Positions 13,164-64,000 of a stretch of 64,000 bases of DNA are shown one piece after another (position 1 is the first letter of the stretch; the number at the start of each line of letters is the position of its first letter). The position numbers were made by a program, and so were the translations under genes. The notes beneath the pieces are model-generated. The model was given only the letters and a program-made list of their open reading frames with translations, did no database searches and was not told the origin of the DNA. Source of the DNA: Candidatus Poribacteria bacterium (GTDB lineage: Bacteria > Poribacteria > WGA-4E > WGA-3G); NCBI GenBank assembly GCA_965197475.1, contig CBDANF010000003.1:2679223-2743222 (forward strand), written 5' to 3'.

Positions 13164-13582
13164 TAAATTGACACCTATAGGCAAAGCGTAAGCGAAACCC
13201 GTGAAATGCACGTGTGGCATTCCGCCCGTATGGTATTCTGCATGATTCATCCAAATCAACGCTGAATGCGCGTTCGGTTTCCGGACCGAACCGCATTCGG
13301 TGCTAACAGGGATATTTAACCAACTTCTTACATGTTCTTGTGCGTTGATGTGGACAAAAGCTACACGCAAAATCATGCAGAATACCAAACGCGCATTCTG
13401 TCACGCGGTTGTCGGCAGAGAAACCCAAGGACTCCCCTACAATGTTAAACAAGGCGAAATGCCAAATTAACACCGATTCCCCTATAATGTGATAAATTGC
13501 TGAGTTTCCGGTTGTTCCAACTAACTTATAGACTGTTGATCGGTAAGCTTAGGCAAGTATACCTACCGTCGTCTTATATCTT

Positions 13583-22929: not shown

Positions 22930-24639
22930 CTATTCTTTCTGTGAGACTGTTTTTCTTTCCTGAATTAAAACAGTGCCATTGTGACTCATGTGTGCGGTTG
23001 TAGTACCATCCGGGGAATGCAATAACCTCTTGGAACCACCTGGAATATCGGTGGGTGTTGCCGTGAGTTCCTTACCTGTTTGAACATCCCACACTCGTGT
23101 TTTCTTTTGCCAATCCCCAGTAGCAATTATTTTTTTACCATCCTCCGAAAATACCACAGTACGAACAGCACCTGGTCCTTTATATATGACTCTTTTACGT
23201 TTTCCTGTTCTGGCATTCCACAAACACACCGTCCCTTTTTCATGAGTATAACAATCTAATCCTGTAACGATTGTTATACCATCAGGGGAATACGCCATGG
23301 AAGAAAAATCATACTCTCTATCCTGAATTACGTTAAAAATCTCATCAATCAAACCAAAATGCTTGAGTGTTGCTTTATGTTTACCTGTTTGTGTATCTAA
23401 CAAGAAAACCTTATCATAAGGCCTTGCCACAGCGATTGTTTTGCCATCAGGGGAATATGTTACTCTGGAAATTCTACCGTACCCAGTAAAAGTGTTTTTT
23501 ATTTTTCCTGTTTGCGTGTCCCACAATTGCACCTTACCATCTTCACTACCGGTGACAATTGTTTTGCTGTCAGGAGAATATGCTGCGGTATTGATATGCA
23601 TATATCCTGTGAGTATGGCTTTAGATTTACCGGTGGCAGCATCCCATAACCGCAACGTTTTGTCTGCGCTTGCGGTAGCGATAGTGCTTCCATCGGGAGA
23701 ATACGCGACAGATTTGACTCTCTCTGTGTGTCCAGTGAGGGTGGATTTAAGTTTCATTGTCCGTGTGTCCCACAATTGCACGTCACCGTTTCCTGTTCCG
23801 CAGACGATGGTGTTTCCATCTGGAGAATATGTCAGAGAGATTATTACTTTTTGTTTTGATATGAGCGTAGTTTTGTGAGTTCCAGTGATAGCATCCCACA
23901 ATCGAATCGTCCCATCGTAACTGCTTGTAGCAATAGTCTTGCTATCTGGAGAATATGCCGCGGAGAAAACGTGTTTTGTATGTCCAGTAAGTGTGATTTT
24001 GTGTTCACCGGTTTTCCCATCCCACAAGTGTACCACGTTATCGTCCCCAGCAGCAGCGTAAGTTGTCCCATCCGAAGAAAACACAACAAAAGTGTCCCGT
24101 TTCGTATGCATTCTACTTGTGGAAATATTTTCACCCGTCTGAGCGTTCCATAAGCGGACCGTGTTATCATAATGCCATCCACCAGTGGCAATAGTCTTTC
24201 CATCGGGAGAATACGCGATTGAATTAACACGCATTGTATGTCCTATGAGTATTGCTTTGTCTTCTCCAGTAGCGACATCCCACACCTCCACTGCCCATAT
24301 ACCACGTCCAGTCGTCCGTTTAGGTTTACCCCAACTTGTACTAGCAATTGTTTTACCATCAGGGGAAAATGCAAAAATGTAAGGACGTGTAATGTGTGAA
24401 CGCTTTAACAGTTCCAATGCTTTTCCTGTCTGCGGGGCATGGAGCCAAATTCCGATAGAAGTTGAAACCGCAAGTTTGCTACCATCTGGAGAAAAGTGGA
24501 TTTCACCAAGGGTGCCTTTGCCAATACGTGCTATTGCCCCTTCGGGTAAGCCAATTTGCGGGTTATCTTGTGCAACTGAGGGAAAACAACAGATTGAAAT
24601 TGTGAGTAGTGTGTATATCAAAACAAAGGAAGTTTTCAT
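22930..24639 (-). CDS. Secreted WD40-repeat protein
   Basis: The 569-aa ORF has a signal peptide (LIYTLLTISICCFPSVAQD). About a dozen repeats of the type AYSPDGKTIATxSxDxTxRLWD follow. Confidence 0.9.
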   Translation of the reverse strand: MKTSFVLIYTLLTISICCFPSVAQDNPQIGLPEGAIARIGKGTLGEIHFSPDGSKLAVSTSIGIWLHAPQTGKALELLKRSHITRPYIFAFSPDGKTIASTSWGKPKRTTGRGIWAVEVWDVATGEDKAILIGHTMRVNSIAYSPDGKTIATGGWHYDNTVRLWNAQTGENISTSRMHTKRDTFVVFSSDGTTYAAAGDDNVVHLWDGKTGEHKITLTGHTKHVFSAAYSPDSKTIATSSYDGTIRLWDAITGTHKTTLISKQKVIISLTYSPDGNTIVCGTGNGDVQLWDTRTMKLKSTLTGHTERVKSVAYSPDGSTIATASADKTLRLWDAATGKSKAILTGYMHINTAAYSPDSKTIVTGSEDGKVQLWDTQTGKIKNTFTGYGRISRVTYSPDGKTIAVARPYDKVFLLDTQTGKHKATLKHFGLIDEIFNVIQDREYDFSSMAYSPDGITIVTGLDCYTHEKGTVCLWNARTGKRKRVIYKGPGAVRTVVFSEDGKKIIATGDWQKKTRVWDVQTGKELTATPTDIPGGSKRLLHSPDGTTTAHMSHNGTVLIQERKTVSQKE

Positions 24640-34143: not shown

Positions 34144-34980
34144 TTAAGACCAGACAAATATTTCGTTATCGTCTGGGGAATACCCGATGAATACTGCCAA
34201 GACTATTCTGGCACGCGCCCCTTGAACGGGTGGCACTTCGTGGATACAACGTGTGTTGAAAAAGTAGAGGTCCCCTTGTCCTAAATTGACTTGACAGTTA
34301 TCTATTCCGTTCGCAGCAGCATACGTATCAAACGTTTCTGCAGCGATATGTGGTTGAATGTTTTCTGACCAGAGGCATCGGTGTAGAATAGCTTGTGTTC
34401 CTCTACCGGTTGCATCCGCATTTTGGACGCATAACACACCTGCAAACTGATGTTCAAAGCGGTAAACAGCATAATCGGCGCGTTGCTCTCGGTATTTGAC
34501 ACTATCAATGTGCGGTTTATAACTATGTGTTTCGTAATGAACGCGGAAGATAGCCGGACCGTAAAGTGATCCGTCCGGTTCACGTGCAACCTTAACCTCT
34601 TTTCCGGGGGAAAGCGCAGCGAGGGATTCGTAAATCAAGTTAACAGGATTATCAAATCCATCAAATAGAAATTGGAAAAGATGGTGTGTTGCTTCTGCAT
34701 GCGCTAAAAAACCGGTTTTATCGATGCCACGATTGCCGAGACTCGTACCGATATCAATACGGGTGCGCTTATCGGCAGAGTTGATGTCTGCCTCGTCGCG
34801 CATCAATCCCATATTTGTGAATCTATTGATGAGTCCTTGGCACTGTTCAGGTGAGTACGCTTTCCGGAGAATAATGGCTGGTATTTCCGCCTGTGAAAGC
34901 GAATAAATAGGGTCTTTATACTTTTCACAAACCGTTTTGAGGTCAGGCTCCGCAGGAAACCAATTTGTTTCATTTTGCAT
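34144..34980 (-). CDS. Putative Fe(II)/2-oxoglutarate-dependent oxygenase
   Basis: The 278-aa ORF has a candidate HxD...H facial triad (YKPHIDS ... RCIHEV) and a basic residue region (GARARIVLAVF). The substrate is unknown. Confidence 0.45.
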   Translation of the reverse strand: MQNETNWFPAEPDLKTVCEKYKDPIYSLSQAEIPAIILRKAYSPEQCQGLINRFTNMGLMRDEADINSADKRTRIDIGTSLGNRGIDKTGFLAHAEATHHLFQFLFDGFDNPVNLIYESLAALSPGKEVKVAREPDGSLYGPAIFRVHYETHSYKPHIDSVKYREQRADYAVYRFEHQFAGVLCVQNADATGRGTQAILHRCLWSENIQPHIAAETFDTYAAANGIDNCQVNLGQGDLYFFNTRCIHEVPPVQGARARIVLAVFIGYSPDDNEIFVWS

Positions 34981-35060
34981 AAGATACTCACTTCTGTAAA
35001 TCCGCTTAATCTTGTGTCGTGTGTAGCGATCAGCAATTCAGATAGGCATTATGCTGAAAT

Positions 35061-35918
35061 TTAGAATTTCGGATTGAAGAGATAATCATCTAATTTCTCG
35101 GCTACGAATTCAGCATTATGGTCAAGTTCACTGTTTTCAAAAGCGGCTTCACATCCAGTTTGATATTTCAAACGTCTGCCTAAACGGAACCAGCGGACAC
35201 GATGAATCATTGCTATCATGTGGCGTGGTTCGTCAGATTGGTTTGGTACACCACGGTGCCAAAGCCGCATATCGCGAATCAACGCGCTCCCTTTTTTCGC
35301 AATTGCACGGATTGGTGGCGCGATTTCGCGACGTTCTGCCTCATGTTCTTCATCAATGTGTCGACCACTAACATCCAGATGTGATCCGGGCCACAGTTCT
35401 ACACTGCCGTTCGCTTCCGTTGTGTCTTGAGGTGAAATATTGACAACCACCTCAGCTGCAGGGTGTGCCACTTCCATATTTTGCCACAGATGATCACCAT
35501 CTCTATGAAGCGGTTGTGTGGAACTACCGGGGCAGTTGGTGTTACCGTTATAAAAATTATTGTAAACGCCTGGACCGAGCAGTTCCTTCGTCACCTGAAT
35601 AACGTAAGGGTTCGCAACGATGTCACTAAAGATATATGGAGCAAACGGAGGCGGTCCCTGCTGGAGATGCCCTTTGAGCATCCCTGCACCACCCCATTTT
35701 TTCGCTTTAATCAGGATTTGCGAATCGGCATCCATCCGTTCTCGTAATATATCCAGATGCTCATCGTTAATAATGTTCTCTATGACAACATACCCATCAA
35801 CGCTAATCGCTTCAACTGCTTGTTTGATATGCGTTTCTGTGAGTTTGCCAGCAGATAATTCATTCGGTTGAGCTGTTATTACCATTGAAAAATTCCTCAT
35901 AGAGTGCTTGAACTGCAA
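35061..35918 (-). CDS. Phytanoyl-CoA dioxygenase (PhyH) family protein
   Basis: The 285-aa ORF carries GYVVIENIINDEHLDILRERM, PLHRDGDH (HxD) and RLWHRGVPNQS, typical of PhyH/EctD-like enzymes. The start is uncertain: in-frame ATGs at 35918, 35900 and 35885 all overlap the aspartate kinase 3' end. Confidence 0.7.
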   Translation of the reverse strand: MQFKHSMRNFSMVITAQPNELSAGKLTETHIKQAVEAISVDGYVVIENIINDEHLDILRERMDADSQILIKAKKWGGAGMLKGHLQQGPPPFAPYIFSDIVANPYVIQVTKELLGPGVYNNFYNGNTNCPGSSTQPLHRDGDHLWQNMEVAHPAAEVVVNISPQDTTEANGSVELWPGSHLDVSGRHIDEEHEAERREIAPPIRAIAKKGSALIRDMRLWHRGVPNQSDEPRHMIAMIHRVRWFRLGRRLKYQTGCEAAFENSELDHNAEFVAEKLDDYLFNPKF

Positions 35919-37638: not shown

Positions 37639-38653
37639 AACGTGAGTTTGATAAATATTTTTAGAAGTTACATATCATTGGCAACTGACAGTCTTTTTCC
37701 TGAAGTTCTTTATGTTTGAGTAAAGGTTTCTTCTTCAGACAGGTATAAGCGATCAAGGCAGCAACTGTGTTCACTTGAAAGTTAACAGGACTTCTATGTC
37801 GTGTGTGTTGTCCCTCTGTCTGACTTTTGAGTTCTTTATTTACGGACTCAACGAGCATCCGTTTCTTCAAGAGTGCTGTATCAGCATCAGACAAAGGTTC
37901 AGGTTTCATATTCGGACGCACTTTGTAAATGAGGGACACGCCTTCTTCTTGGAGTCTCTCCCGCAGATTTTTGGCGATATATCCTTTATCGGCAAATAGT
38001 TTGCCAAAGAGCCCACGACACAACTGTGGCACGGGTTGCCTGTCATCTACGTTTCCCCGTGCCACCATAGCGGACAACAGTTCACCTTGGTCGTTGATGA
38101 CGACATGTAGTTTGAACCCATAGAACCATCCCATAGAAGTTTTAGCACGACCCGCACACTCAGCGAAGACGCGATGCGTTGAAATCCGACGATTGTGGCA
38201 GACCGGAAGGGGTGTTGAGTCTATGAAGGAAATCCCACGACATTCACCGAAACGGGTGTTCAGAAAAATAGACAACGGAACCAATACCTCTTGTGAGAGC
38301 TGCACAAAACGACTATAGCTGACAAGTTTTGGAAACGCCCAACGCAACTGGCAGCAAACATAATCCTGATAATAGGCTTTAAAGTTTTTATACCGCTTCT
38401 GATGAAAATGCACAAGTATCGTCATGACTTCGCTCGGATGAAGACACCGAAGTCTGCCACGGGTATTGCTTGTTCCGGGGATTTCCGGTAACTGGTGTTG
38501 TGCTTGATAGTGTTCGGACGCAAGAAAAAAGTTGTCAATTTCACAGAAAAGTGTTATGATATCCATCAGAGAACTCCTTTGTCCGTATTTGATATACTTC
38601 ATAATAACAAAGAGGTTCTCTATTTACCAGTTTTTAATTATCAAACTCACGTT
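37639..38653 (-). mobile_element. IS982-family insertion sequence (~1.0 kb)
   Basis: The 16-bp terminal inverted repeats aacgtgagtttgataa (37639-37654) and ttatcaaactcacgtt (38638-38653) enclose a single DDE transposase gene. No flanking direct repeat is visible. Confidence 0.85.
37661..38602 (-). CDS. IS982-family DDE transposase
   Basis: The 313-aa ORF carries MDIITLFCEIDNFF, FIDSTPLPVCHNRR, GFKLHVVINDQGELLS and LFADKGYI, hallmarks of IS982 transposases. An alternative start is the MDIITLF Met at 38564-38566. Confidence 0.9.
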   Translation of the reverse strand: MKYIKYGQRSSLMDIITLFCEIDNFFLASEHYQAQHQLPEIPGTSNTRGRLRCLHPSEVMTILVHFHQKRYKNFKAYYQDYVCCQLRWAFPKLVSYSRFVQLSQEVLVPLSIFLNTRFGECRGISFIDSTPLPVCHNRRISTHRVFAECAGRAKTSMGWFYGFKLHVVINDQGELLSAMVARGNVDDRQPVPQLCRGLFGKLFADKGYIAKNLRERLQEEGVSLIYKVRPNMKPEPLSDADTALLKKRMLVESVNKELKSQTEGQHTRHRSPVNFQVNTVAALIAYTCLKKKPLLKHKELQEKDCQLPMICNF

Positions 38654-45942: not shown

Positions 45943-46088
45943 TATGTCCAGTAACTGTGAGTAGCACTTATCTGAAAATTCTGTGTAGATGACATTTTCA
46001 TGTTATAGGTGGCAACTTGGGTTATTATACAATAAAAATACGCAATTAGTAGTTTTGGACATGATAAAATTTGATAATTTTAGTGTAT

Positions 46089-47114
46089 TTATGACAGTAA
46101 TTCATTTATTGTTATTAATTGGGGATTAAATTTTTCGAAACCCAATGGTGTAAGTTTTAATTTATTCATATATTCATAGTTTATATTTTTGCATATTTCT
46201 ATTAAGTCTTTATCGTCTGAAGCAAAAATATCACAGAATGGCAAGTGTAATATGTATCTTATATCTCTTGTAAAATTTGTGCCTTTAGTTTGTATGATAA
46301 ATTTGCATTTTTCTATATTGAAATACAGAAAATATATATAGTAGCAGAAAAAAGTATAAGGGTATCTTTGGCTTATTTTTATGTTGTTGTTAATTGTTTC
46401 TTTTATCTCTTGTGTTTCTTTTTCTGTTAGTTTTGCGATTGGTGCTATTGCATTAATGCTGTTTGTTGTATTTCTGTTAAAAATAGTTTCTATGTCTATT
46501 ATTAATGCATGAAACATTTTTTGCATTATTTCTTTTTTAAATTTCTTATCATTGTTTTTGATATTGTCCCTAATAAATTTTATCAAATCATTATTTATAT
46601 TTTCATCGCCGTATTTTAATAAGTATTTTTGTAGTTTTTCAATATACCTTTTTTGATTTATGCGTGGGTCTCCTAATTGGCCTATTATTTCAGCAAATTC
46701 AATTATATAATTAGAGGCTTGATTGTTTTCGAAAAACTTTTTTAAAATTTCAAATATCTTTTCTTCTTCTTCAAATTGTTGTTTGGCATACTGGTTCAGG
46801 TTTTTGATTTCACGTTTTAAATCTTCTGTTTCACCTATTTGGGCATAAGTCATTTTCGTTATCGGTATATTTTCTATAATTTCTTTTTTTATTATTTCTG
46901 GTGTTGTATCATAACATACATGGTATTCTAATCTTATTTTTGATTGAATAAATTCATCTATTTTTTCTTTGCCATATTTTATTGATCCTATTAATAATTC
47001 AAAACTCAGTATAGGACTATACCTAATATCATATAACGAATGTAAAAAACTAATTTCTTCTTGTTTTAGTGTTTGTAGCGACGATTTGTCTAATAGTAGT
47101 ATTTGTTTTCTCAT
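46089..47114 (-). CDS. AT-rich hypothetical protein, possible split PIN-like nuclease with a long helical insert
   Basis: I place the start at ATG 47112-47114 (MRKQILLLDKSS...), 4 nt after the MTase stop, rather than the overlapping track start at 47252. The N-terminus ILLLDKSSL...SFELL and C-terminus LHLPFCDIFASDDKDL resemble the first and last acidic PIN motifs, a low-confidence reading. A 60-nt spot count gave about 18% GC. Confidence 0.5.
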   Translation of the reverse strand: MRKQILLLDKSSLQTLKQEEISFLHSLYDIRYSPILSFELLIGSIKYGKEKIDEFIQSKIRLEYHVCYDTTPEIIKKEIIENIPITKMTYAQIGETEDLKREIKNLNQYAKQQFEEEEKIFEILKKFFENNQASNYIIEFAEIIGQLGDPRINQKRYIEKLQKYLLKYGDENINNDLIKFIRDNIKNNDKKFKKEIMQKMFHALIIDIETIFNRNTTNSINAIAPIAKLTEKETQEIKETINNNIKISQRYPYTFFCYYIYFLYFNIEKCKFIIQTKGTNFTRDIRYILHLPFCDIFASDDKDLIEICKNINYEYMNKLKLTPLGFEKFNPQLITINELLS

Positions 47115-47118
47115 GTGA

Positions 47119-48483
47119 TTACAACACTCCTTGCTCTTTAAGTTTAGCAATAAGTTCTGCCTGCGTTCCAGTGCCTTTAGTAGAATTACAAGCCCCACAG
47201 AGAAGTTGCAAGTTATCCTTGTGGTCTGTGCCACCGTGTTTTTGTGGGACAATATGATCTACAGTCAAATTACGGAATGGAAAATGAGTTCGGCAGCCAT
47301 TGCAGACACCTTCCTGTTTACCATAAAGTGTGTGTTTGTGGGTTTGGTAATTAGGCAATTTCTCACTGCGCTTGGGTATATCGGTTCGGTGTGTTACATC
47401 ATAAAACATTCCAAGTTCTTTCTTAAGACGCATTTTGACAAGTTCTACGGCTTTTTCTGATATATCAATACCGATCCACTGACGGTTTAGACGCTCTGCT
47501 GCCACGCAGGTTGTTGCACAACCGCAGAAGGGGTCTAATACCATATCACCTTCTTTTGATGATGCCTTGATTATCCGTTCTAATAATGCTAATGGTTTTT
47601 GTGTGGGGTAGCCTGTTTTTTCGTTTCCTAATACTGGCTGTATATCTGTCCATAAATTATTTGCTGGCATTCCTTCCTTTAAACGGTGTTTACGATATAC
47701 TTTTCCGTTGGCAAAATCAAGTTCACCTTCTTCATCTAATTTTTGTAGTGTTGATTTTTTTACAGTCCATCCGCTTGGGTTTGGCGGATAAAATCCTTTA
47801 TATTCATAGCAAAGATTTGGACGCTCTCCTAATCCAGGAGGTCTGAATGGATTTCGTCTTTCATATTTTCCTTTTTCATCTTTAAATTTGAATTTTTTTA
47901 GATATTCTTCACTGAATGGAATAAGGTCTGAATTTATATCAAATTTACTATTATGATATGCGTAATATAGAATTTGGTCTGTTGACGTGCCGTATGATTT
48001 TTCTTTATACTGTGTTGTTTTACCTGCTCCCTGTATGCGTTGCCAAACAATTTCATTTCTAAAGTTTTCTTTACCAAAAACACTATCCATAAGAATTTTT
48101 AGATAGTGACTTGCTGTTGGATCACAATGAAGGTATATACTTCCTGTATCTTTCAAAACACGTTTCATCTCAAGCAGGCGGATTGACATCATTATTAGAT
48201 ATGATTTCATTCCCTTTCCGTGTGTTATTTCTGATGTCTGTATTGCCTGATATAAAGCGGGTTCACGGTCTGCGATTTCGCCGTGCCAAGCATTGTCAAC
48301 GTCTGATAGTGTCCACGTATCCTTAAACGCTGCACCAGCAGCTTCACTGCCAATTGGAGCTGCGTAATTTCGGTTGGAATTGAAAGGTGGATCAAGGTAT
48401 ATTAGATCTGCGGACTGGGTGTCCAAACCACGCAATATATGTAAATTATCATTACTAAAGATTGTACGATTATTAACATTCAT
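47119..48483 (-). CDS. DNA methyltransferase (beta-class N6A/N4C, PF01555-like) fused to a C-terminal HNH nuclease motif
   Basis: The 454-aa ORF has motif IV LIYLDPPFNSNRNY near the N-terminus and motif I VLDPFCGCATTCVAAE later. The C-terminus CNGCRTHF..LTVDHIVPQKHGGTDHKDNLQLLCGACNSTKG is a complete CxxC..H..N..H..CxxC HNH finger. Confidence 0.85.
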   Translation of the reverse strand: MNVNNRTIFSNDNLHILRGLDTQSADLIYLDPPFNSNRNYAAPIGSEAAGAAFKDTWTLSDVDNAWHGEIADREPALYQAIQTSEITHGKGMKSYLIMMSIRLLEMKRVLKDTGSIYLHCDPTASHYLKILMDSVFGKENFRNEIVWQRIQGAGKTTQYKEKSYGTSTDQILYYAYHNSKFDINSDLIPFSEEYLKKFKFKDEKGKYERRNPFRPPGLGERPNLCYEYKGFYPPNPSGWTVKKSTLQKLDEEGELDFANGKVYRKHRLKEGMPANNLWTDIQPVLGNEKTGYPTQKPLALLERIIKASSKEGDMVLDPFCGCATTCVAAERLNRQWIGIDISEKAVELVKMRLKKELGMFYDVTHRTDIPKRSEKLPNYQTHKHTLYGKQEGVCNGCRTHFPFRNLTVDHIVPQKHGGTDHKDNLQLLCGACNSTKGTGTQAELIAKLKEQGVL

Positions 48484-55291: not shown

Positions 55292-55656
55292 CTGATTTAC
55301 GAGATGCTCTCTACAATCAGTAATAATAGCAACTGAAAACCGAAACCGATAAAATGTCTTAGATTCTAAACAGCGAAACAATATCCCGTATTTTCCACAT
55401 TAAAATCAAGATGCCACCAAGCAGTATTAGATACCACACAATCATCGGTATTATCCGCTTTTTCTTAAAGAACGAACGGGATGGTCTCTTCTGTTCCATT
55501 ATATCGCTCCTTACGCTTATCTTGTTAGAAAGGATTGCACCTCAGACACTGTTGCGATTATGATAGCATATATCACGGAAAAATGTCAAATCCTATTCTG
55601 TGAATTTTCGTAACTTGCATTGCTATATTCTTCGTTATTATGGTATAATAACACCT

Positions 55657-56595
55657 ATGGAAAATCTTCTACTTGCTGAACATTCAGCTTCTCCATATCT
55701 GATTAATCCATCATTTTCAGGGCACCAAACCTTTCCGTTTCGGTATACGTGGCTAAAGAAGGGCGTTGATGCGGCGACAGAAGATCCAACGATCTTTTCA
55801 TCAGAATACGCTACTGTGACTTTAGGTGTCGGAAAAAACATGGTGGATTCTATTCGGCACTGGTGCAGCGTTGCAGGACTCATCAAAGCAGATTATCATC
55901 AACGCGGTCGATTCGTTCCCACTATCCTTGGCAAATCCATTTTTGATGACAAAAAAGGATTTGACCCGTACCTTGATGATCCTGCCACTTTGTGGTTGAT
56001 TCACTGGCAGATCACAACGAATATCAATCAGGCAACCGCGTGGTATTGGGCATTTAATATTCTAAAGAAAAATCAATTCATTCGTTCAACATTCATGAAA
56101 GAGTTGTACGAATGGGTACGACAACAGAAAGAATCCACGCCGCTTGCTTCTGACAACACACTTCAACGGGATGTTAATTGCTTTATCCGAACCTACTGCC
56201 AGTCACGTCACAGTGCTGCTGTAGTGGAAGAGACGTTTGACTGTCCACTCGTTGAACTCAACTTAATAGCTGAATTGCCAGATGGTGAAGGGTATGGATT
56301 CCAGCGCGGCGAAAAAGAGACGTTACCAATTGAGGTTGTTACCGCAACACTCATAGCCTTTTGGGATGTTCGTTTTTCCGAAAGGGACGCACTGTCTTTC
56401 ACAGACCTGATGTACGCCCCCTTAAGTCCAGGACGAATTTTCAGATTAGACGAAGACACGATGACGATATATCTTGAAAAACTTGAACAACTCACCGATG
56501 GCGCACTGCTATACGACGAAACCGCTGACCTGAAGCAGGTCTATCGATATAGAGATTTTAATCCGATGCAGGCTTTAAAGAGGTATTATGGGTAA
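55657..56595 (+). CDS. sspB: DUF4007-type protein, SspB-like (phosphorothioation-associated nickase family)
   Basis: The N-terminus PSFSGHQTFPFRYTWLKKGVD matches the hallmark DUF4007 opening motif (F-x-GH-x-TF-x-x-RY-x-WL-KK), recognised from memory. I prefer ATG 55657 to GTG 55600. An extended -10 (TGGTATAAT, 55641-55649) lies 7 nt upstream of this ATG, so the mRNA may be leaderless. Confidence 0.65.
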   Translation: MENLLLAEHSASPYLINPSFSGHQTFPFRYTWLKKGVDAATEDPTIFSSEYATVTLGVGKNMVDSIRHWCSVAGLIKADYHQRGRFVPTILGKSIFDDKKGFDPYLDDPATLWLIHWQITTNINQATAWYWAFNILKKNQFIRSTFMKELYEWVRQQKESTPLASDNTLQRDVNCFIRTYCQSRHSAAVVEETFDCPLVELNLIAELPDGEGYGFQRGEKETLPIEVVTATLIAFWDVRFSERDALSFTDLMYAPLSPGRIFRLDEDTMTIYLEKLEQLTDGALLYDETADLKQVYRYRDFNPMQALKRYYG

Positions 56596-59500
56596 CGTTC
56601 CGCTGTCAGATCTTTTTCATATAAAAGGTCGTTTTCGCCGCTCGGTGCACATTGAACGTGACTTCTATACAGAAAATGCCCTTGATGGATACGTTTTAAC
56701 TGTCACCGCGCGGGAAATGTTATCACGTCTCATTGCAACGTTTGAAAATGAGGCAACATCTAAAGCGTGGTCACTTACCGGTCCCTACGGGTCGGGCAAA
56801 TCAGCATTTGCACTCTTCGCCGCGAAACTGCTTGGCAATTCTGATGCCCGGACAACACAACAAGCTTTTGAAATACTAAAACGTGGAGATGCCTCGTTAT
56901 ATGAACGATTCATCAGCACAAACGGTGATGAAAAGCGGACACCCTCTGGATTCTGTCCAGTACTTATCTCAGGAGAACGTGCACCACTTTCACTCGCTCT
57001 TTTGCGCGGTTTAGATCGCGGAATCACCACATCCAACGGAACACAAATTTCTATTTCACTACGTCAAGAACTTGATAATCTGTTGGAAACAGTAGAAAAT
57101 GACTCCCTACCATCTGCTTCTGAAGTTACGCGCTTATTTGAATTAGCAACGCACGAGATTTGTGATGCGGGAGGCTCCGGTATGTTGCTCGTAGTTGACG
57201 AACTCGGAAAATTTCTTGAATACGCCACGCAACACCCGACACAAGGCGATATGTTTATCCTGCAGAGTCTCGCGGAATTGGCAGACCGAAGCAAGCGAAC
57301 CCCGCTGTTTCTAATGACCATCCTCCATCAAGCTTTTGACGTTTACGCACAGCGTACCGCGCAATCGCAACGCGAAGAATGGGCGAAGGTTCAAGGACGA
57401 TTTGAAGATGTTGTCTTTGCCGAACCTACAGAACAGGTACTCCGTTTAGTCGGTACGGCACTTGAGAAGTCCTCAGAAATTATTTGCAAAGATAACCTTA
57501 ACACCGCAGCCGAATTAGGACTTAAACCGCGCCAACTTGACGAGAGCGAATTCTCCCAACTGTTGGAGAGTTGTCTTCCGCTTCACCCAACCGTAGCACT
57601 TCTTATCGGACCACTTTTTCGACGATTCGCACAGAATGAACGTTCCCTCTTCGCTTTTCTCAGCTCAAGTGAACCGTACGGGTTACAAGATTTCCTTTCA
57701 AACCAACACTACGACGGGTACCGACTGCAGACGTTTTCGCTCGCGGACCTATACGACTACCTTAACGCTACGCAGGGCAATAAACTCTATGCTTCAAGAA
57801 ACAGCAAAAAGTGGGTAGAAATTGAATCCGCAATAGCGCACTTGTCAGACCCATCCGACATGACAGTTAAACTGATTAAGACTATTGGTTTACTCAGCAT
57901 CGTTAGTGAACCAATTCCTAACTTGAAAGCCTCAGAACAGCTGCTCCGTTACGCATTAGACGATGGCACAGAAGAATTTGCAACCGAATTTGCTGAAACA
58001 CTTGCAACACTGAAAAAACGATCAATCATTATCCACCGTCGGTACAACAACACTTACGGACTCTGGGAAGGGAGTGACATTGATATTGAGTCAAAACTCC
58101 GTGAGGCAGAAACACACGTTGACACGAAAATCGCCCTCGCTACGGACCTATCGCGCTACATGCCCACGCGCCCGCTCGTTGCAAGACGGCACCTGTTTCA
58201 AACAGGGACCCTGCGCTACTTCACTATTCGCTACACCGATTTTGAAAACTTTGATACAGACCTCAAAGAACCGATCGGTGATGCAGACGGACTCGTTCTC
58301 TATGCTTTGCCTGCAAATGAATATGAGGTTAAGCAGCTCGTTGAAAAGGCAGGCAACATTGACACCGCAGATCACAAAGAGGTGCTAATTGCAATCCCGC
58401 ATTCCATCGGTTTTCTGGATGATGCTGTCACGCAACTTGCATGTTTACACTGGATTACGGACAACATACCTGAACTTGAAAGCGATGCAGTCGCAAGGCG
58501 CGAACTCTCAATGCAGCAGGTTGAAGTTGAACGCGATATGTCCCGTCAGTTAACAACAATTTTTAGCGGAGATAAGGAAGACATCCGTATGTGGTATAGC
58601 AACGGTCAAACGGTAGATATTAACTCGCAACGTGTCCGAAACGCGCACTTGTCAAAAATCTGTGATGCGGTTTTTCACAAAACACCCCTCATTCGGAATG
58701 AACTTATCAATCGTCGTAAAATCTCTGGTGCTGCAACATCCGCACGCAAGAAATTAATTCAAGCCATGCTTGAAAACGGTGACAAAGAAAATCTCGGCAT
58801 CACTGGCTATCCAGCTGAAATGAGTATCTACCGATCCCTCTTATGGAATACGGGGATACACCGTCGGGTCTCTGGTGTTTGGGGGTTCCACCCACCAAAA
58901 GCAGATGATAAAAACAAAATAACGCACGTGTGGAATGCAATCGAAATATTTCTTGAGAAGTGTGAAAATAAACGTCAATCTGTCATAAAACTTTATGAGC
59001 GTCTGATGGTGCCGCCTTACGGTGTGCGAAATGGTCCGCTCCCCATTCTGTTGTGTGTTGCGATTTTCCATTACAGAACAGAAATCGCACTTTATGAAAA
59101 CGGTTCCTTTGTTGCGGATCTATCTGTCCCAGTCTTTGAACGGTTGCTTAAAGTACCAGAGCAATTTGAACTGAAGCGATTTCGGTTAGCGGGTATCCGC
59201 GCAGAGCTCTTTGCACAATTTTTGAAGATGCTCAACCAACCTACAGAAACCGAAAACCCGGATCTATTGACGGTGGTCACACCGTTGATGCGCTTTATTG
59301 GACGGCTCCCGAAGTACACTTTGGCAACCCAAACGTTGAGTGATGCGGCAAAAAGAACGCGTGATACCGTCAGAAATGCACGTGAACCTGACGAACTTCT
59401 CTTTAAGCAGTTACCGGAGTCGCTCGGATTTTCCGCTTTTACTGCAAAAGCAGCAGATTCAAAGACAGTTTCAGATTTTTTCAATACGTTACAAGGTGCC

Positions 59501-60070
59501 TTGTCCGAATTAGGAAGTGCTTACGACCAACTGCTAAACTCCCTTGAACAGATGCTCGCGGCAGCGTTCACATCCGAATCAAGCGCAGAAGAACTCCGCA
59601 CAGAATTAGCCACAAGAGCCGACCCCTTGTTAGAAGTAGCAATTGAGACGCAGCTCAAAGGATTTTTAATCCAAGTTTGCAGCGGCGGGCATGATCTCAC
59701 AAGTTGGATTGAGGCGATCGCAACCTTTCTCGCCAAAAAACCACCCGCATCTTGGATAGACACAGATAAGGCACAATTTGAGATTAATCTCTCTCAACTC
59801 GCAAGGAAATTCCGACATTTTGAAACGGTGTCCTATGAAAAACTACAACACACTGAATCGTCAGGCGAGACAATTCGGATAGGCATCACGACACCGAATG
59901 AACACGAACAGGAACGGGTTGTTAACTTAACTGACGAGGAACATGCCGATAAAATAGAACAAGCGATTACAAAAGTTTTTGATGATCTTGATGCAGACGG
60001 AAACCCCGAATTTCGTCTCGCTGTTTTAGCGCGAATCTCAAAAAAAATGATGCAAGAATTTGATAAATAA
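56588..60070 (+). CDS. sspC: Large P-loop NTPase, SspC-like
   Basis: The 1160-aa ORF starts inside the sspB-like stop region (8-nt overlap). Walker A is LTGPYGSGKSAF and Walker B is MLLVVDELGKFLEY. Its size and its position between a DUF4007 gene and a PAPS-reductase gene fit SspC. The assignment is by context plus motifs, not alignment. Confidence 0.55.
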   Translation: MGNVPLSDLFHIKGRFRRSVHIERDFYTENALDGYVLTVTAREMLSRLIATFENEATSKAWSLTGPYGSGKSAFALFAAKLLGNSDARTTQQAFEILKRGDASLYERFISTNGDEKRTPSGFCPVLISGERAPLSLALLRGLDRGITTSNGTQISISLRQELDNLLETVENDSLPSASEVTRLFELATHEICDAGGSGMLLVVDELGKFLEYATQHPTQGDMFILQSLAELADRSKRTPLFLMTILHQAFDVYAQRTAQSQREEWAKVQGRFEDVVFAEPTEQVLRLVGTALEKSSEIICKDNLNTAAELGLKPRQLDESEFSQLLESCLPLHPTVALLIGPLFRRFAQNERSLFAFLSSSEPYGLQDFLSNQHYDGYRLQTFSLADLYDYLNATQGNKLYASRNSKKWVEIESAIAHLSDPSDMTVKLIKTIGLLSIVSEPIPNLKASEQLLRYALDDGTEEFATEFAETLATLKKRSIIIHRRYNNTYGLWEGSDIDIESKLREAETHVDTKIALATDLSRYMPTRPLVARRHLFQTGTLRYFTIRYTDFENFDTDLKEPIGDADGLVLYALPANEYEVKQLVEKAGNIDTADHKEVLIAIPHSIGFLDDAVTQLACLHWITDNIPELESDAVARRELSMQQVEVERDMSRQLTTIFSGDKEDIRMWYSNGQTVDINSQRVRNAHLSKICDAVFHKTPLIRNELINRRKISGAATSARKKLIQAMLENGDKENLGITGYPAEMSIYRSLLWNTGIHRRVSGVWGFHPPKADDKNKITHVWNAIEIFLEKCENKRQSVIKLYERLMVPPYGVRNGPLPILLCVAIFHYRTEIALYENGSFVADLSVPVFERLLKVPEQFELKRFRLAGIRAELFAQFLKMLNQPTETENPDLLTVVTPLMRFIGRLPKYTLATQTLSDAAKRTRDTVRNAREPDELLFKQLPESLGFSAFTAKAADSKTVSDFFNTLQGALSELGSAYDQLLNSLEQMLAAAFTSESSAEELRTELATRADPLLEVAIETQLKGFLIQVCSGGHDLTSWIEAIATFLAKKPPASWIDTDKAQFEINLSQLARKFRHFETVSYEKLQHTESSGETIRIGITTPNEHEQERVVNLTDEEHADKIEQAITKVFDDLDADGNPEFRLAVLARISKKMMQEFDK

Positions 60071-60139
60071 CACTTGACTTATTTTAATTAACATGCTACA
60101 ATTAGAAAAAATATAACAGACCTAATTGGGAGGGACAGC

Positions 60140-60958
60140 ATGGCACAAAAAATACGTCATCTTCTCGGACTTTCGGGTGGAAAAGACAGCTCAGCACTTG
60201 CCGTTTACATGCGCGACAGAGTGCCAGAGATGGAATACTTTTTCACTGATACCGGTAAAGAATTGCCAGAGACTTACGATTTTTTGGACCGCCTTGAAGC
60301 GTTCCTCGGCAAACCGATCGCACGTCTCAACGTAGAACGCGATTTCGATCACTGGCTAACACTACACGGAGGCTTGCTACCATCTTCTCAAGTGCGTTGG
60401 TGTACCATCAAACTCAAAATAAGACCTTTTGAGGAATACGTCGGCGAAGATAAAGCGTTCCACTATATCGGTATCCGTGCTGACGAAGATCGTGCCGGCT
60501 ACAAACCGCTGAAAACGACCGCCCTCCAAAACATCATCCCTAAATACCCATTCAAAGAGGATGGCATCACCAAAGAGGACGTTTTCAGAATCCTTGAGGA
60601 AAGCGGACTCGGTTTGCCCGACTATTACAAGTGGCGAACACGTTCCGGGTGCTACTTCTGCTTCTTCCAACGTAAATCCGAATGGGTGGGTCTCTTAGAG
60701 CAACATCCCGACCTATTTGAACTTGCCAAAAGATACGAGAAATTCAGTCCAGAGACAGGCGAACGGTTCACGTGGAGTCAGGGTGAAAGCCTGGAGGAAT
60801 TAGCAGAACCAGAACGGATAGCAGAAATCAAGGCACGTACCGAACAGGCGAAAGTATCCAAAAAAACAGCAAAACCGAACCGTCGTCTGATAGAGATTTT
60901 GACCGATGTTCACGATGACGAAGATGATGAGGAGCCTTGTCTGGTGTGCCATAAGTGA
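60140..60958 (+). CDS. sspD: PAPS-reductase/PP-loop ATP pyrophosphatase, SspD/DndC-like
   Basis: The 272-aa ORF has a GGGAGG RBS and the PP-loop LSGGKDSSALAVYM. Conserved Cys residues (RWCT, SGCYFCFFQ, CLVCHK) are compatible with an Fe-S site. Confidence 0.7.
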   Translation: MAQKIRHLLGLSGGKDSSALAVYMRDRVPEMEYFFTDTGKELPETYDFLDRLEAFLGKPIARLNVERDFDHWLTLHGGLLPSSQVRWCTIKLKIRPFEEYVGEDKAFHYIGIRADEDRAGYKPLKTTALQNIIPKYPFKEDGITKEDVFRILEESGLGLPDYYKWRTRSGCYFCFFQRKSEWVGLLEQHPDLFELAKRYEKFSPETGERFTWSQGESLEELAEPERIAEIKARTEQAKVSKKTAKPNRRLIEILTDVHDDEDDEEPCLVCHK

Positions 60959-60975
60959 TATTGTGGAGATTACCA

Positions 60976-61869
60976 ATGCCTATGGATAGAGAGTTAATCA
61001 TTGAGAAATTTGATAACATTAGAATATGGAGACGAGGTGATGAAAGAGCACCTCACAAACCATTACTAATCCTATATGCGATAGGAAAATTGCTGCGCGA
61101 TGGGACTCGTCTTGTTCCATACGCTGAAATAGATGAAGGTCTTGGTAGATTATTACAAGAATTTGGACCTAGCCAAACAACACGAGGAACTGCGTATCCA
61201 TTTTGGAGGTTGCAAGGAGATGGTGTTTGGGAGGTGACCAACACCGAAAATATTACACCAAACACTGCGGGTGATGCCAGCAAAACAGATCTCCTTGAAA
61301 GTAACGTTTCTGGCGGCTTCCATGAAGAGATCATAGCGCAACTTCAAAATGATTCTACATTGTCTATTGAAATAGTTCAGATGATGTTGGACAAACACTT
61401 TCCAGATTCAATTCACAGTGAAATTTTACAAGCAGTTGACATTGAATTCCCTCCCCAAGTTTTTGAAACAAGAGAACGTTTTTCTAACTTCCGAAATAGT
61501 GTTTTAAAAGCCTATGAGTACAAATGTGCTGTCTGCGGCTTTGATGTGAAATTGGGTGCTATCTCAATCGCACTAGAGGCTTCTCATATCAAATGGAAAT
61601 CTCATAGTGGACCTAATAAAGAAGTGAATGGATTATGCCTCTGTGTTATGCATCATAAACTGTTTGACCTTGGGGCGTTCACGTTGTCCAAAGAACTACA
61701 CATCCTTGTTTCGGATGATGCACACGGAACAAAGGGACTCAAGGAGTCGCTTACGGATTTCCACAAAAAGAAAATCAATTTTCCGCAAAGGCAAATCTAT
61801 CTCCCCGACTTAGAATTTATCGGTTGGCATGTCAGAGAGGTGTTTAAGGGAGATTATAGGGAATTGTGA
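60976..61869 (+). CDS. HNH nuclease with N-terminal sulfur-binding-domain (SBD)-like module (ScoMcrA/SprMcrA-type PT-DNA reader)
   Basis: The ORF frame overlaps the sspD-like stop (track start GTG 60955; first ATG at 60976). The C-terminus is an HNH_2-type motif: CAVCGFDV...LEASHIKW...NGLCLCVMHHKLFDLGAF. The N-terminus has RAPHKPLLILYAIGKL followed 47 residues later by AYPFWRL. This fits the H-R ... Y-P sulfur-pocket residues I recall for the ScoMcrA SBD. The assignment is from memory and needs a profile or structure check. Confidence 0.55.
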   Translation: MPMDRELIIEKFDNIRIWRRGDERAPHKPLLILYAIGKLLRDGTRLVPYAEIDEGLGRLLQEFGPSQTTRGTAYPFWRLQGDGVWEVTNTENITPNTAGDASKTDLLESNVSGGFHEEIIAQLQNDSTLSIEIVQMMLDKHFPDSIHSEILQAVDIEFPPQVFETRERFSNFRNSVLKAYEYKCAVCGFDVKLGAISIALEASHIKWKSHSGPNKEVNGLCLCVMHHKLFDLGAFTLSKELHILVSDDAHGTKGLKESLTDFHKKKINFPQRQIYLPDLEFIGWHVREVFKGDYREL

Positions 61870-61895
61870 TCATATAATCAAATAGGTAATAAGAC

Positions 61896-63758
61896 ATGAA
61901 ACTTACAAAAGTACGTATAACGAATTTTCAGAGCATTCAGAATTCAACCGAGTTTGATATTGACGATGTCACTTGTTTAGTAGGAAAAAATGAGGCTGGC
62001 AAGACTGCGTTATTAAAAGCACTGTACCGCTTGAATCCAATCAACGAATCGGACGGCAATTTTAATGTCACGGATGATTATCCGCGCCAAACTATGAATG
62101 CCTACGAAGATTCTATTTTAGATGGTGAAGACCACGCAGAGGTTGTTCATGCTACCTACATGCTTGAACCCGAGGACATAAGCATTGCCAGAGAATTTCT
62201 TGGGTCTGAATACCCTGAAGACGAAATCCCAACCATCACCCTTCGTAAAGGATATTCAAACAAACTTTTCTACGGTGGATTGGGTATTGGCAGTAGCGAA
62301 TATACATACAATGACTTGAGCGAAGATGCTGACGAAAATACTTACTATGGCTTGTCTCCGAACGCTCCAGCCGTTTTGAATCAACTTGTTGATCGTATTC
62401 CCAAATTCCTTTATTTCGATGAGTACTATCAGATGAAAGGACAGGATAACATTGAAACACTCAGACAGCGTGTTGCAAGTGATTCACTTGAAGAACCAGA
62501 CCATCCATTACTTGGGTTAATTCAACTTGCGGGTCTCGATCTTGACCAGATTATTAATACACGTCAAACGGAATCCTTAATTGCGAAGTTAGAAGGAGCA
62601 GGAAACTTTCTTACTCAAAAAGTACTTCCTTATTGGTCCCAAAACCAACACCTTCGGATGAAATTTGAAATCCGTCCTGGACAACCTGAAGATCCGCAAG
62701 GTATGACTAGTGGAACAAACATCTGGGGGCGCGTAGAAGACACCAAACACTATGTTACCACTGCACTTAGAACTCGATCTCGCGGTTTTGTCTGGTTCTT
62801 TTCTTTTCTCGCTTGGTACCACAAAATTCGCAAGGAAAACGAAAATCTCATATTACTCTTGGACGAACCAGGACTCTTCCTTCATGCAAAAGCCCAAGGC
62901 GATCTACTCCACTACTTTGAAAAAGAACTGATCCCACATCACCAACTTATCTACACAACTCACTCACCGTTTATGGTTGATCCGGGACATTTCGATCGTG
63001 TAAGAATTGTCCAAGATTTGAGCATTGAAGCGAATTCTGATAATTTATCTGAAGAGGAACAAGGGACAAAAGTTATTACTGAAGTGCTTGATGCAATACC
63101 TGACAGTCTTTTTCCACTTCAGAGTGCCCTCGGTTACGAGATTACTCAGACACTTTTTATCGGCCCCAACAATCTCATCGTTGAGGGAGTATCTGACTTA
63201 CTGTACATTGAAACCATCTCTACACTTCTTCAGACACGAGGTAAAGATGGTTTGAGTTCCGATTGGACTATTATGCCTGTTGGCGGTTCTGACAAGGTTT
63301 TTACATTCGTTTCACTGATTGGTGCTCAGAAGGATTTGAATATTGCCGTTCTTATTGACTTTCAGAAGAAAGATCAGCAAAGAATTGAAAACCTATACAA
63401 GACGAAATTACTTAAACAGAAAAAAGTTCTCACTTACGCAGCCTTTGTGCAGGGTAATGAAGCAGATATTGAGGATATGTTTGATCCTAACTTTTATTTA
63501 AAGTTAGTAAATAGCGTATTTGAGACATCTTTAACTACAAATGATTTGCCAAAAGGCACGCGTATCATCCGTCGTCTTGAAAACTACTTTGAGAATAATC
63601 CTATTTCTAACGACGTAAAGTTTAACCATTACAGACCTGCTTTCTATTTGAGCAAGAACCTCCAATCACTTGAGAACGATTTAACTGATCCACAGCTTGA
63701 TCGTTTCCAAAAAGCCTTTGATGTTCTGAATAAATTGCTTGTTACTCAGTCTACATAA
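61896..63758 (+). CDS. OLD-family ATP-dependent nuclease (ABC-type ATPase + TOPRIM)
   Basis: The 620-aa ORF opens with MKLTKVRITNFQSIQ...LVGKNEAGKTALLKAL (Walker A). Walker B and D-loop are LILLLDEPGLFLHAKAQ, and the H-loop is IYTTHSPF. The C-terminal TOPRIM-like motifs are NLIVEGVSDLLYIE, PVGGSDKV and AVLIDFQKKD. Confidence 0.75.
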   Translation: MKLTKVRITNFQSIQNSTEFDIDDVTCLVGKNEAGKTALLKALYRLNPINESDGNFNVTDDYPRQTMNAYEDSILDGEDHAEVVHATYMLEPEDISIAREFLGSEYPEDEIPTITLRKGYSNKLFYGGLGIGSSEYTYNDLSEDADENTYYGLSPNAPAVLNQLVDRIPKFLYFDEYYQMKGQDNIETLRQRVASDSLEEPDHPLLGLIQLAGLDLDQIINTRQTESLIAKLEGAGNFLTQKVLPYWSQNQHLRMKFEIRPGQPEDPQGMTSGTNIWGRVEDTKHYVTTALRTRSRGFVWFFSFLAWYHKIRKENENLILLLDEPGLFLHAKAQGDLLHYFEKELIPHHQLIYTTHSPFMVDPGHFDRVRIVQDLSIEANSDNLSEEEQGTKVITEVLDAIPDSLFPLQSALGYEITQTLFIGPNNLIVEGVSDLLYIETISTLLQTRGKDGLSSDWTIMPVGGSDKVFTFVSLIGAQKDLNIAVLIDFQKKDQQRIENLYKTKLLKQKKVLTYAAFVQGNEADIEDMFDPNFYLKLVNSVFETSLTTNDLPKGTRIIRRLENYFENNPISNDVKFNHYRPAFYLSKNLQSLENDLTDPQLDRFQKAFDVLNKLLVTQST

Positions 63759-63813: not shown

Positions 63814-63843
63814 TTGACAAACCACCACCCCGTCAAGTATAAT
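63814..63843 (+). promoter_or_regulatory. Consensus sigma70 promoter (TTGACA-18-TATAAT)
   Basis: TTGACA lies at 63814-63819 and TATAAT at 63838-63843, about 45 nt upstream of the ATG at 63887. Confidence 0.5.
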
Positions 63844-63886: not shown

Positions 63887-64000
63887 ATGGCACAATATGA
63901 TGAGATCGTGAAGCACCTGATGGATCGGTTCGCCGATGAGTTCGCCATGCTATCCTTTGGCACGCCCGATGTCCAAGTTTTAGAGACACTTGACACCGAA
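63887..64000 (+). CDS. 5' fragment of an ORF running off the window (possibly Rpn/YhgA-like PD-(D/E)XK putative transposase family)
   Basis: My translation MAQYDEIVKHLMDRFADEFAMLSFGTPDVQVLETLDTE has no stop before the window end. The family guess rests only on the N-terminal pattern ending in ...LDTE and is weak. Confidence 0.3.
   Translation, partial: MAQYDEIVKHLMDRFADEFAMLSFGTPDVQVLETLDTE

Follow-up and report, generated by a model that had tools for sequence, protein, structure and literature searches.

A sulfur-binding HNH nuclease gene linked to sspBCD phosphorothioation genes in Poribacteria and other bacteria

The stretch of 64,000 nucleotides from a Candidatus Poribacteria bacterium analyzed here (contig CBDANF010000003.1 of assembly GCA_965197475.1, positions 2,679,223 to 2,743,222 of the forward strand; hereafter the window) carries the phosphorothioate (PT) modification genes sspB, sspC, and sspD, followed by a gene for an HNH nuclease whose N-terminus carries a sulfur-binding domain (SBD), here called SBD-HNH, and by a gene for an OLD-type protein. 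A survey of related loci shows that SBD-HNH is non-randomly linked to ssp genes, above all to sspD, and that this pairing is real and conserved. A literature search returned no paper that describes sspBCD plus SBD-HNH as a system, and as far as we found the pairing is undescribed for Ssp. Our preferred reading, which we hold tentatively and with a probability of roughly 0.45, is that SBD-HNH would be an autonomous type IV nuclease, dependent on PT, that can coexist with the single-strand Ssp marks of its host.

Identity of the SBD-HNH nuclease and its linkage to ssp genes

The SBD-HNH protein matches the NCBIfam model NF045808, “phosphorothioated DNA-binding restriction endonuclease”, at 1.7e-103 with 345.6 bits, well above its cutoff of 180, and with residues 16-298 aligned to profile positions 4-284 of 284, and also matches Pfam HNH_2 (1.6e-10). 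A sulfur-binding winged-helix domain covers approximately residues 1-158 and an HNH/Zn-finger domain approximately residues 170-297; no Pfam match to an SRA domain was found in the protein, which consists of SBD and HNH only. When the N-terminal half was compared with the Protein Data Bank (PDB) by sequence, the SBDs of ScoMcrA (4e-11) and SprMcrA (1.6e-7) were retrieved, and the N-terminal domain of an AlphaFold2 model, in which the SBD half is confident and the HNH half has a pLDDT below 50, aligned to PDB entry 5zmo with a TM-score of 0.81 and a root-mean-square deviation of 2.4 Å, followed by SprMcrA and Hga. The ScoMcrA pocket residues H116 and R117 correspond to H27-K28 here, K being found at the R117 position in most homologues, and Y164-P165 corresponds to the Y-P of the motif YPFWRL. 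Across 24 aligned homologues, H27, K28, and P75 of the sulfur pocket are invariant, as are the Zn-binding and catalytic residues C184, C187, H204, N218, C223, H226, and H227, while the position preceding P75 is Y in most rows and F or D in others. The position of ScoMcrA A168 is R in the window nuclease, a change reported to be tolerated (PMC6224610). By profile, predicted fold, and motifs, the gene is a bona fide SBD-HNH of the EcoWI/SprMcrA/ScoMcrA family. The SBD-nucleases characterized so far are all PT-dependent type IV enzymes that cut PT-bearing DNA (PMC6224610, PMC7461809, PMC7470945, PMC10602919). No relatives of the window nuclease that would point to phage or prophage carriage were found in IMG/VR.

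The SBD-HNH family returned 3662 matches, from which we took the 80 closest homologues in species-representative genomes, each with 10-kb flanks, and searched these loci with the window proteins by tblastn. Most of the 80 loci come from metagenome-assembled genomes (MAGs) of sponge symbionts (Poribacteria, Latescibacterota, Caldilineaceae, and Gemmatimonadota), and Desulfobacterales are represented too. In 46 of the 80 loci (57%), ssp genes lie within 10 kb of SBD-HNH. These comprise 26 loci in which sspD is directly upstream of the nuclease gene on the same strand, with gaps of mostly 12-67 nt (class A), 12 loci in which the nuclease gene is directly upstream of sspB-sspC-sspD (class B), and 8 loci in which ssp genes are near but not adjoining. 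In the other 34 loci, the DNA retrieved around SBD-HNH carries no ssp gene; 18 of these solo loci have full 10-kb flanks, and no recurrent neighbours were seen there. Because sspBCD is present in about 3% of genomes (PMC12914056), a linkage of 46 in 80 is far above chance, even when the Poribacteria are collapsed to a few events, most linked loci being from one phylum.

The content of the linked loci varies in several further ways, described here in their own right (loci of the survey are given as L numbers). Two adjoining HNH open reading frames (ORFs) are found in L001 (10001-11800) and L024, and two copies in L026 and L061. In L010, L011, and L023, a cassette that recurs in several Poribacteria and encodes a HATPase_c_3 protein of 568-598 aa and a protein of about 162 aa splits sspD from the nuclease gene; its HATPase_c_3 protein matches PADLOC MzaB (1.3e-19), and the cassette also lies directly past sspD in L005 and L170 (12422-14619). 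L169 carries, at 12948-13445, a 165-aa SBD-only gene with no HNH directly past sspD, then two TIR-domain genes. A co-oriented cluster directly past the nuclease gene in L081 (the same locus as L012; 11019-16328), also seen in L014 and L037 and partly in L052, L053, and L006, encodes a DUF328/DUF6884 (DpdC-like) protein, four unannotated proteins, a weakly BrxC/BrxD-like ATPase, and a TGT (DpdA-like) protein, and looks like a 7-deazaguanine-type DNA modification system beside PT genes.

The phosphorothioate writer, locus integrity, and competing readings

The three writer genes of the window are readily recognized. SspB matches Pfam DUF4007 across 288 of 288 profile positions (1.3e-86) and PADLOC SspB (2.9e-97; all PADLOC results are gene-level matches to PADLOC hidden Markov models), SspC matches PADLOC SspC over residues 13-1080 (E=0, 1128 bits) and shows the Walker A motif GPYGSGKS and the Walker B motif VVDELGK, and SspD matches PADLOC SspD over its full length (1.7e-117) and Pfam PAPS_reduct (4.1e-11), with an SGGKDS PP-loop and C-terminal Cys pairs. 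The SspBCD writer at this locus is complete and plausibly functional. By homology, SspB would be a DNA-binding nickase, SspC an ATPase, and SspD a PP-loop sulfur-transfer enzyme. No Aminotran_5 match was found among the window ORFs of at least 150 aa, and a six-frame scan of the window found no class-V aminotransferase pyridoxal phosphate-lysine motif; because no cysteine desulfurase is encoded nearby, the sulfur donor would be a housekeeping IscS-type enzyme. The gene sspA is regarded as replaceable by IscS (PMC8092258, PMC12914056), so its absence does not bar the locus from membership in Ssp.

The nuclease gene starts 17 nt past the sspD stop codon and is probably co-transcribed with sspD. 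The spacer between sspC and sspD holds a promoter-like site (Table 1) with a GGGAGG ribosome-binding site between it and sspD (60128-60133), varies among genomes, and in L083, the closest syntenic relative of the window, contains a toxin-antitoxin insertion, for which reasons sspD and the nuclease gene may form a transcription unit of their own. The insertion in L083 (7709-8192) consists of a BrnT toxin gene and a small partner gene, and because this pair sits there, the spacer is a tolerated insertion point.

In the reading that we prefer, the winged-helix sulfur pocket would read an Rp phosphorothioate and the HNH domain would cut nearby, with SBD-HNH acting alone as a PT-dependent type IV enzyme against foreign PT patterns, e.g., double-stranded Dnd-type marks. 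Since such a nuclease would cut PT DNA while its host writes PT, it must tolerate self marks, and we infer that it would be blind or inert to the sparse single-strand Ssp marks of the host. The ssp pairing would then come from the co-selection, within a defence hot spot, of a writer and a reader that are compatible, and would not mark a writer-dependent restriction arm.

The integrity of the linked genes bears directly on this proposal. ORFs were clustered over 49 ssp-linked loci (including the window, L083, and L084), and the HNH ORF is intact in all 49, SspD in 44, SspC in 29, and SspB in 26; sequencing errors in the MAGs may account for some of the split ORFs behind these counts, a caveat that tells against our reading. 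Both sspB and sspC are intact in about 6 of 25 class A loci and missing or broken in about 19 of the 25, with neither gene present in 8, while both are intact in 12 of 12 class B loci, 10 of which carry PbeA/PbeC (writer intactness in class A versus class B, Fisher p = 1e-5). Because the writer is usually incomplete beside the nuclease gene and intact beside Pbe, the nuclease does not enforce retention of the writer. In this it is unlike DndFGH, SspFGH, and Pbe, which are toxic without PT, since the writer is always intact with Pbe and usually incomplete where the nuclease gene alone follows sspD.

In the class B arrangement just mentioned, PbeA and PbeC are encoded directly past sspB-sspC-sspD (L031, L032, L034, L049, L051, L057, L058, L063, L069, and L076). 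The Ssp-Pbe stretch lies at approximately 16.6-20.9 kb in the class B loci with full flanks, and such a stretch is also found in L005 (986-5481). PbeA (PLD plus SF2 helicase) is matched by PADLOC at 2.9e-201 and PbeC (a DndD-like ATPase) at 8e-57. On these matches, these class B loci of Poribacteria are identified as an Ssp-Pbe hybrid with SBD-HNH upstream of sspB; Pbe has been described as a Dnd partner.

The allele history of the nuclease gene is likewise uncoupled from that of the writer. The ratio of nonsynonymous to synonymous substitution rates (omega) is 0.06-0.28 for the nuclease gene, loci without sspB and sspC included. Pairwise identities correlate at 0.84 (Spearman) between SspC and SspD and at 0.22 between HNH and SspD, SspD pairs that are at least 90% identical have HNH proteins that are 49-95% identical, and in the HNH tree linked and solo copies interleave, as do those of class A and class B. 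One Poribacteria hot spot contains, in different genomes, sspB-sspC-sspD-HNH, sspD-HNH, HNH alone, or HNH-sspB-sspC-sspD-PbeA-PbeC, and the same flanking housekeeping genes (SBP, PfkB, and TPR; or the clusters c7, c6, and c8) bracket different contents. The nuclease gene is the most persistent element of these loci and exchanges alleles independently of sspC and sspD. The first-pass annotation, made from the window alone, had the nuclease, together with OLD, replacing the usual restriction partner; the named partners are indeed absent from the window, but replacement is doubtful given that the family of the nuclease is made up of enzymes cutting PT DNA (PMC7461809, PMC6224610), that the nuclease remains intact without sspB and sspC and also where there is no ssp gene, and that its alleles are uncoupled from sspC and sspD.

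Several observations weigh against an independent type IV enzyme. The 38 loci in which the nuclease and ssp genes immediately adjoin on the same strand with 12-67-nt gaps, in two gene orders, are far from a random arrangement, and the linkage is met again in Gemmatimonadota, Desulfobacterales, and Vecturithrix, whose ssp products are only 28-55% identical to those of the window; in the Gemmatimonadota locus L002, for example, SspC is 30%, SspD 54%, and HNH 65% identical to the window proteins, and further linked loci with divergent ssp genes are L038, L042, L043, L046, L047, and L050. Such adjacency is not obviously needed by a purely independent type IV enzyme. Directly after sspD, the nuclease gene occupies the slot that in canonical systems belongs to SspE, itself a PT-sensing HNH-type nuclease (PMC9646914). 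The ScoMcrA base-reading loop R188-G189-R190, R191 is a conserved S-G-D here. In three Ssp-centred loci picked by SspC similarity, sspD is followed by other genes and one truncated SBD-only gene; the other genes are, in one locus, that of a DndB-like protein of 721 aa and, in a second, MzaB-like HATPase genes plus a DndB-like gene. Where sspB and sspC are lacking, omega of sspD is 0.03-0.10 (at a synonymous divergence, dS, of 0.5-1.1), compared with 0.045-0.077 in complete loci, so that “writer decay” may be the wrong description and sspB and sspC may lie elsewhere in those genomes. The best 120 SspC matches, which reach down to 68% identity, include none on chromosomes with sspD-HNH lacking sspB and sspC.

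Several of these points would fit an enzyme that serves as the restriction arm of Ssp, i.e., a minimal SspE analogue whose SBD docks on the Ssp PT marks of the host, with docking either licensing the HNH domain or restraining it on self DNA, so that unmodified invader DNA would be nicked or cut. The same slot and the same combination of a PT sensor with an HNH-type nuclease are found with SspE, and a conserved operonic place directly after sspD, seen in 26 genomes at species level, or beside sspB, in 12 more, across several phyla would be expected of such an arm. For about 84% of sspBCD clusters no restriction partner (SspE or SspFGH) is known, and more partners are expected (PMC8092258); moreover, in 698 taxa the dnd modification genes have directly downstream of them a gene for a wHTH(SBD)-SRA-HNH protein, which has been proposed as the true restriction component there (PMC10853773). 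An effector of the SspE kind is harmless without PT, so it would not force writer retention either. Nevertheless, the nuclease gene is intact and under purifying selection without sspB and sspC, and likewise where no ssp gene lies within 10 kb, settings in which a PT-requiring effector would serve no purpose. Class B loci already hold PbeA/PbeC beside sspBCD, a module that restricts unmodified DNA, the nuclease alleles do not co-evolve with sspC and sspD, and the characterized members of the family are all activated by PT to cut the DNA that bears it (PMC7461809). We regard a restriction arm as unlikely, though it fares best among the alternatives.

A null hypothesis, which strikes us as improbable, holds that there is no functional relation, with the highly conserved sspD merely anchoring recombination where a variable cargo region of a defence island begins, and SBD-HNH, OLD, Dpd-like, TIR, MzaB-like, and DndB-like genes being interchangeable cargo that lands there by chance. 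The highly variable content after sspD and after the nuclease gene, the shuffled nuclease alleles, and the constant housekeeping genes around different contents are all what one would then see. Against it stand the loci with the nuclease gene upstream of sspB and the linkage seen in further phyla, where the ssp genes are very divergent (L002, L038, L042, and L046), and the observed linkage far exceeds what the frequency of sspBCD among genomes would give by chance.

Poorer still are the prospects of sspD and SBD-HNH as a self-sufficient two-gene module that writes and reads PT with a housekeeping desulfurase, SspD writing PT alone (as reported for TdpC) or acting on HNH nicks and sspB and sspC being accessory specificity factors. 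The sspD ORF is the more persistent of the writer genes (intact in 44 of 49 loci, compared with 26-29 for sspB and sspC), and in at least 8 species (L012/L081, L017, L021, L033, L071, L084, L010, and L023) an intact sspD lies directly or closely upstream of the nuclease gene although sspB and sspC are both missing from the surrounding 10 kb or so; there it sits approximately 9.1-10.0 kb or 5-7.6 kb into the locus. Such a module would explain the strong purifying selection on sspD-HNH in these species, where omega of sspD is the same as in complete loci; in the window sspD has a promoter-like site and ribosome-binding site of its own, and tdpC alone suffices for PT synthesis (PMC12914056). We consider the module very unlikely, as SspD acting alone has no biochemical precedent, sspB and sspC may be encoded elsewhere in those genomes, the nuclease is often found without any sspD, and its alleles are exchanged independently of sspD, contrary to what tight co-adaptation of the two would lead one to expect.

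Whichever reading holds, the pairing raises the question of how a cell tolerates, in one operon, a PT writer together with a nuclease that PT activates. The nuclease might be blind to the strand or sequence concerned, PT might license it as it does SspE, or the chemistry might be that of sspD only; either the catalogue of PT-based immunity would be extended or the specificity rules of sulfur-binding domains, which already serve as PT-mapping and editing tools, would be defined. The finding also points to sponge symbionts (Poribacteria) as a probable rich source of Ssp variants, Ssp-Pbe hybrids included.

Locus layout, the OLD-type gene, and other genes in the window

The ORF list and translations of the window confirm five co-oriented genes on the + strand spanning 55657-63758 (Table 1), with the 8-nt overlap of sspB and sspC and the 26-nt gap before the OLD-type gene that the first-pass annotation had given. 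Its assignment of the products to SspB, SspC, SspD, SBD-HNH, and OLD-type families was borne out by the profile searches, as was the absence of SspE, SspFGH, DndFGH, PbeABCD, and sspA from the window: no match to SspE, SspFGH, DndFGH, or Pbe proteins was obtained with Pfam or PADLOC among ORFs of at least 150 aa, and for sspA the six-frame motif scan agrees. The overlap of the sspD stop codon with the next frame has to be withdrawn, as it rests on a GTG start for the nuclease gene at 60955. This start was rejected in favor of the ATG at 60976, which is backed by the homologue alignment, by the 297-aa length of the public gene call, and by a GGAG lying 8 nt upstream of it. For sspB, a GTG at 55600 is also open, and homologues align from residue 1 of the form that begins at ATG 55657. 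Promoter-like sites in the region are no more numerous than in shuffled sequence, which makes the site ahead of sspB weak evidence.

Table 1. Features of the ssp/SBD-HNH region, in window positions.
Feature	Position	Strand	Evidence
Promoter-like site upstream of sspB, TTGCTA-18-TATAAT with TG	55620..55649	+	Consensus scan, weak evidence
sspB, DUF4007, 312 aa	55657..56595	+	Pfam, PADLOC, homologue alignment
sspC, P-loop ATPase, BrxC/PglY-like, 1160 aa	56588..60070	+	PADLOC, Walker motifs
Promoter-like site in the sspC-sspD spacer, TTGACT-17-TACAAT with TG	60074..60102	+	Consensus scan
sspD, PP-loop PAPS-reductase-like, 272 aa	60140..60958	+	PADLOC, Pfam, motifs
SBD-HNH nuclease, 297 aa	60976..61869	+	NCBIfam, Pfam, PDB sequence and fold matches
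OLD/GajA-like ABC-ATPase plus putative TOPRIM protein, 620 aa	61896..63758	+	Pfam, PADLOC, PDB matches

The product of the OLD-type gene matches Pfam AAA_15 (2e-22) and AAA_21 (1.1e-13), PADLOC AriA (6e-23), PADLOC Old over residues 312-488 (1.8e-22), and also GajA; its Pfam OLD-like_TOPRIM score of 17.6 bits is under the cutoff of 23.2. Its best match both by sequence and by fold is the Thermus OLD protein of PDB entry 6p74, followed by GajA, with full-length fold alignments to these two at E-values of about 1e-11 to 1e-12 and TM-scores of just 0.30-0.36, and its ATPase fold resembles SMC/Rad50 heads and OLD/GajA. Among homologues, VEGxSD, D488, and the acidic motif EADIEDMF are invariant, and the second TOPRIM motif is D-[YF]-Q, not the canonical DxD. 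Because neither a GajB/UvrD helicase nor AriB is encoded beside it, the next gene belonging to an unannotated 293-aa family, the gene is part of neither Gabija nor PARIS.

The first-pass annotation had proposed an uncatalogued PT-based architecture in which SBD-HNH and OLD would form a two-nuclease effector module. The part that stands is an undescribed pairing of sspBCD with SBD-HNH, whose linkage in 46 of 80 loci extends over several phyla; the two-nuclease module is not supported, since an OLD homologue lies within 10 kb of the nuclease gene in 3 of the 80 HNH-centred loci, and neither ssp genes nor SBD-HNH were found near OLD homologues in any of 80 OLD-centred metagenomic loci (36-65% identity). 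OLD is near ssp or HNH genes solely in a few Poribacteria, and in mixed contexts: the five-gene order of the window is repeated in L083, save for the BrnT pair; L084 has sspD-HNH, then an insertion sequence element, a TIR gene, and OLD; L165, again at the SBP/PfkB/TPR hot spot, has SBP, HNH, and OLD but lacks any ssp gene; and in L166 and L167 OLD is found amid unrelated defence genes. On these counts and contexts, OLD was rejected as a system component. The slot after the nuclease gene is variable, holding OLD, a DpdC/TGT-type (Dpd-like) cluster, or other unnamed genes, and OLD is an adjoining stand-alone defence gene in this variable cargo slot, not a conserved member of an ssp/HNH system.

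Past OLD, a perfect sigma-70 consensus, TTGACA-18-TATAAT (12/12), is found at 63814-63843 (+), ahead of a gene at 63887-64000 (+) that is cut by the end of the window. This gene is the member of the 293-aa family noted above, has no Pfam or PADLOC match, and belongs to a family (cluster c10) that recurs, sometimes twice, downstream of HNH or OLD in 8 related loci. The ORF at 47119-48483 (-), approximately 7 kb upstream of the ssp genes, encodes a DNA methylase of the N6/N4 type that continues into an HNH endonuclease at its C-terminus (Pfam N6_N4_Mtase 1.6e-45, HNH 2.7e-13), and lies within a low-GC patch at 46000-48000; the GC content of 0.31 over this 2-kb stretch, against about 0.45 elsewhere, suggests a separately acquired element. 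Further genes at 34144-35918 (-), 37661-38602 (-), 22930-24639 (-), and 31029-33917 (-) comprise halogenase, transposase, and WD40 items: the window encodes a WelO5-like carrier-independent halogenase with a PhyH dioxygenase as its neighbour, along with a DDE transposase and a pair of large WD40-repeat proteins, of which one matches PADLOC HEAT-ARM_XIII. These genes are typical for sponge symbionts and unrelated to the ssp finding.

Comparison with known systems

The writer genes of the window are those of SspABCD-SspE (Xiong 2020; PMC9646914) and SspBCD-SspFGH (PMC8092258), in the same order. In known Ssp systems sspA is dispensable or replaced by IscS (Vibrio anguillarum), and the window likewise has no sspA. 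SspE, encoded directly downstream of the writer, is a nuclease that reads PT and whose active site is of the HNH type, and SBD-HNH has the same position here; in contrast to SspE systems, the window has no DUF262 GTPase/DUF1524 protein and no SspFGH, and the reader is a sulfur-binding winged helix of the ScoMcrA type with no NTPase switch.

The nuclease itself shares the SBD-HNH architecture of approximately 295 aa with SprMcrA, EcoWI, Ksp11411I, and Bsp305I (PMC7461809, PMC6224610, PMC7470945), whereas ScoMcrA has an added SRA domain, which the window nuclease lacks, and R188-G189-R190 where the window nuclease has S-G-D in its base-contact loop. For SBD-HNH type IV enzymes, coexistence with dnd has been treated as an anomaly: Lutz et al. 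expected that SBD-nucleases would avoid PT writers, and reported proximity to dnd genes in less than 3.6% of cases (PMC7461809), whereas in the clade of the window nuclease 57% of the closest homologues lie beside ssp genes. Among stand-alone class 1 OLD nucleases (P2 Old and the Thermus scotoductus OLD of 6p74), an N-terminal ABC ATPase precedes a C-terminal TOPRIM-like region, and the OLD-type protein here has such an ATPase and a putative TOPRIM-like region; unlike in GajA and AriA systems, no GajB/UvrD helicase and no AriB accompany it.

The closest parallel in gene order comes from the Dnd neighbourhoods described by the Aravind laboratory (PMC10853773), in which a PT writer is likewise directly followed by an SBD-HNH nuclease, for which that work proposed the role of an alternative restriction component in the absence of DndFGH. 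That study analyzed Dnd and not Ssp neighbourhoods. The window differs in that its writer is Ssp (SspB/SspC) and not DndCDE, and in that its nuclease has no SRA domain.

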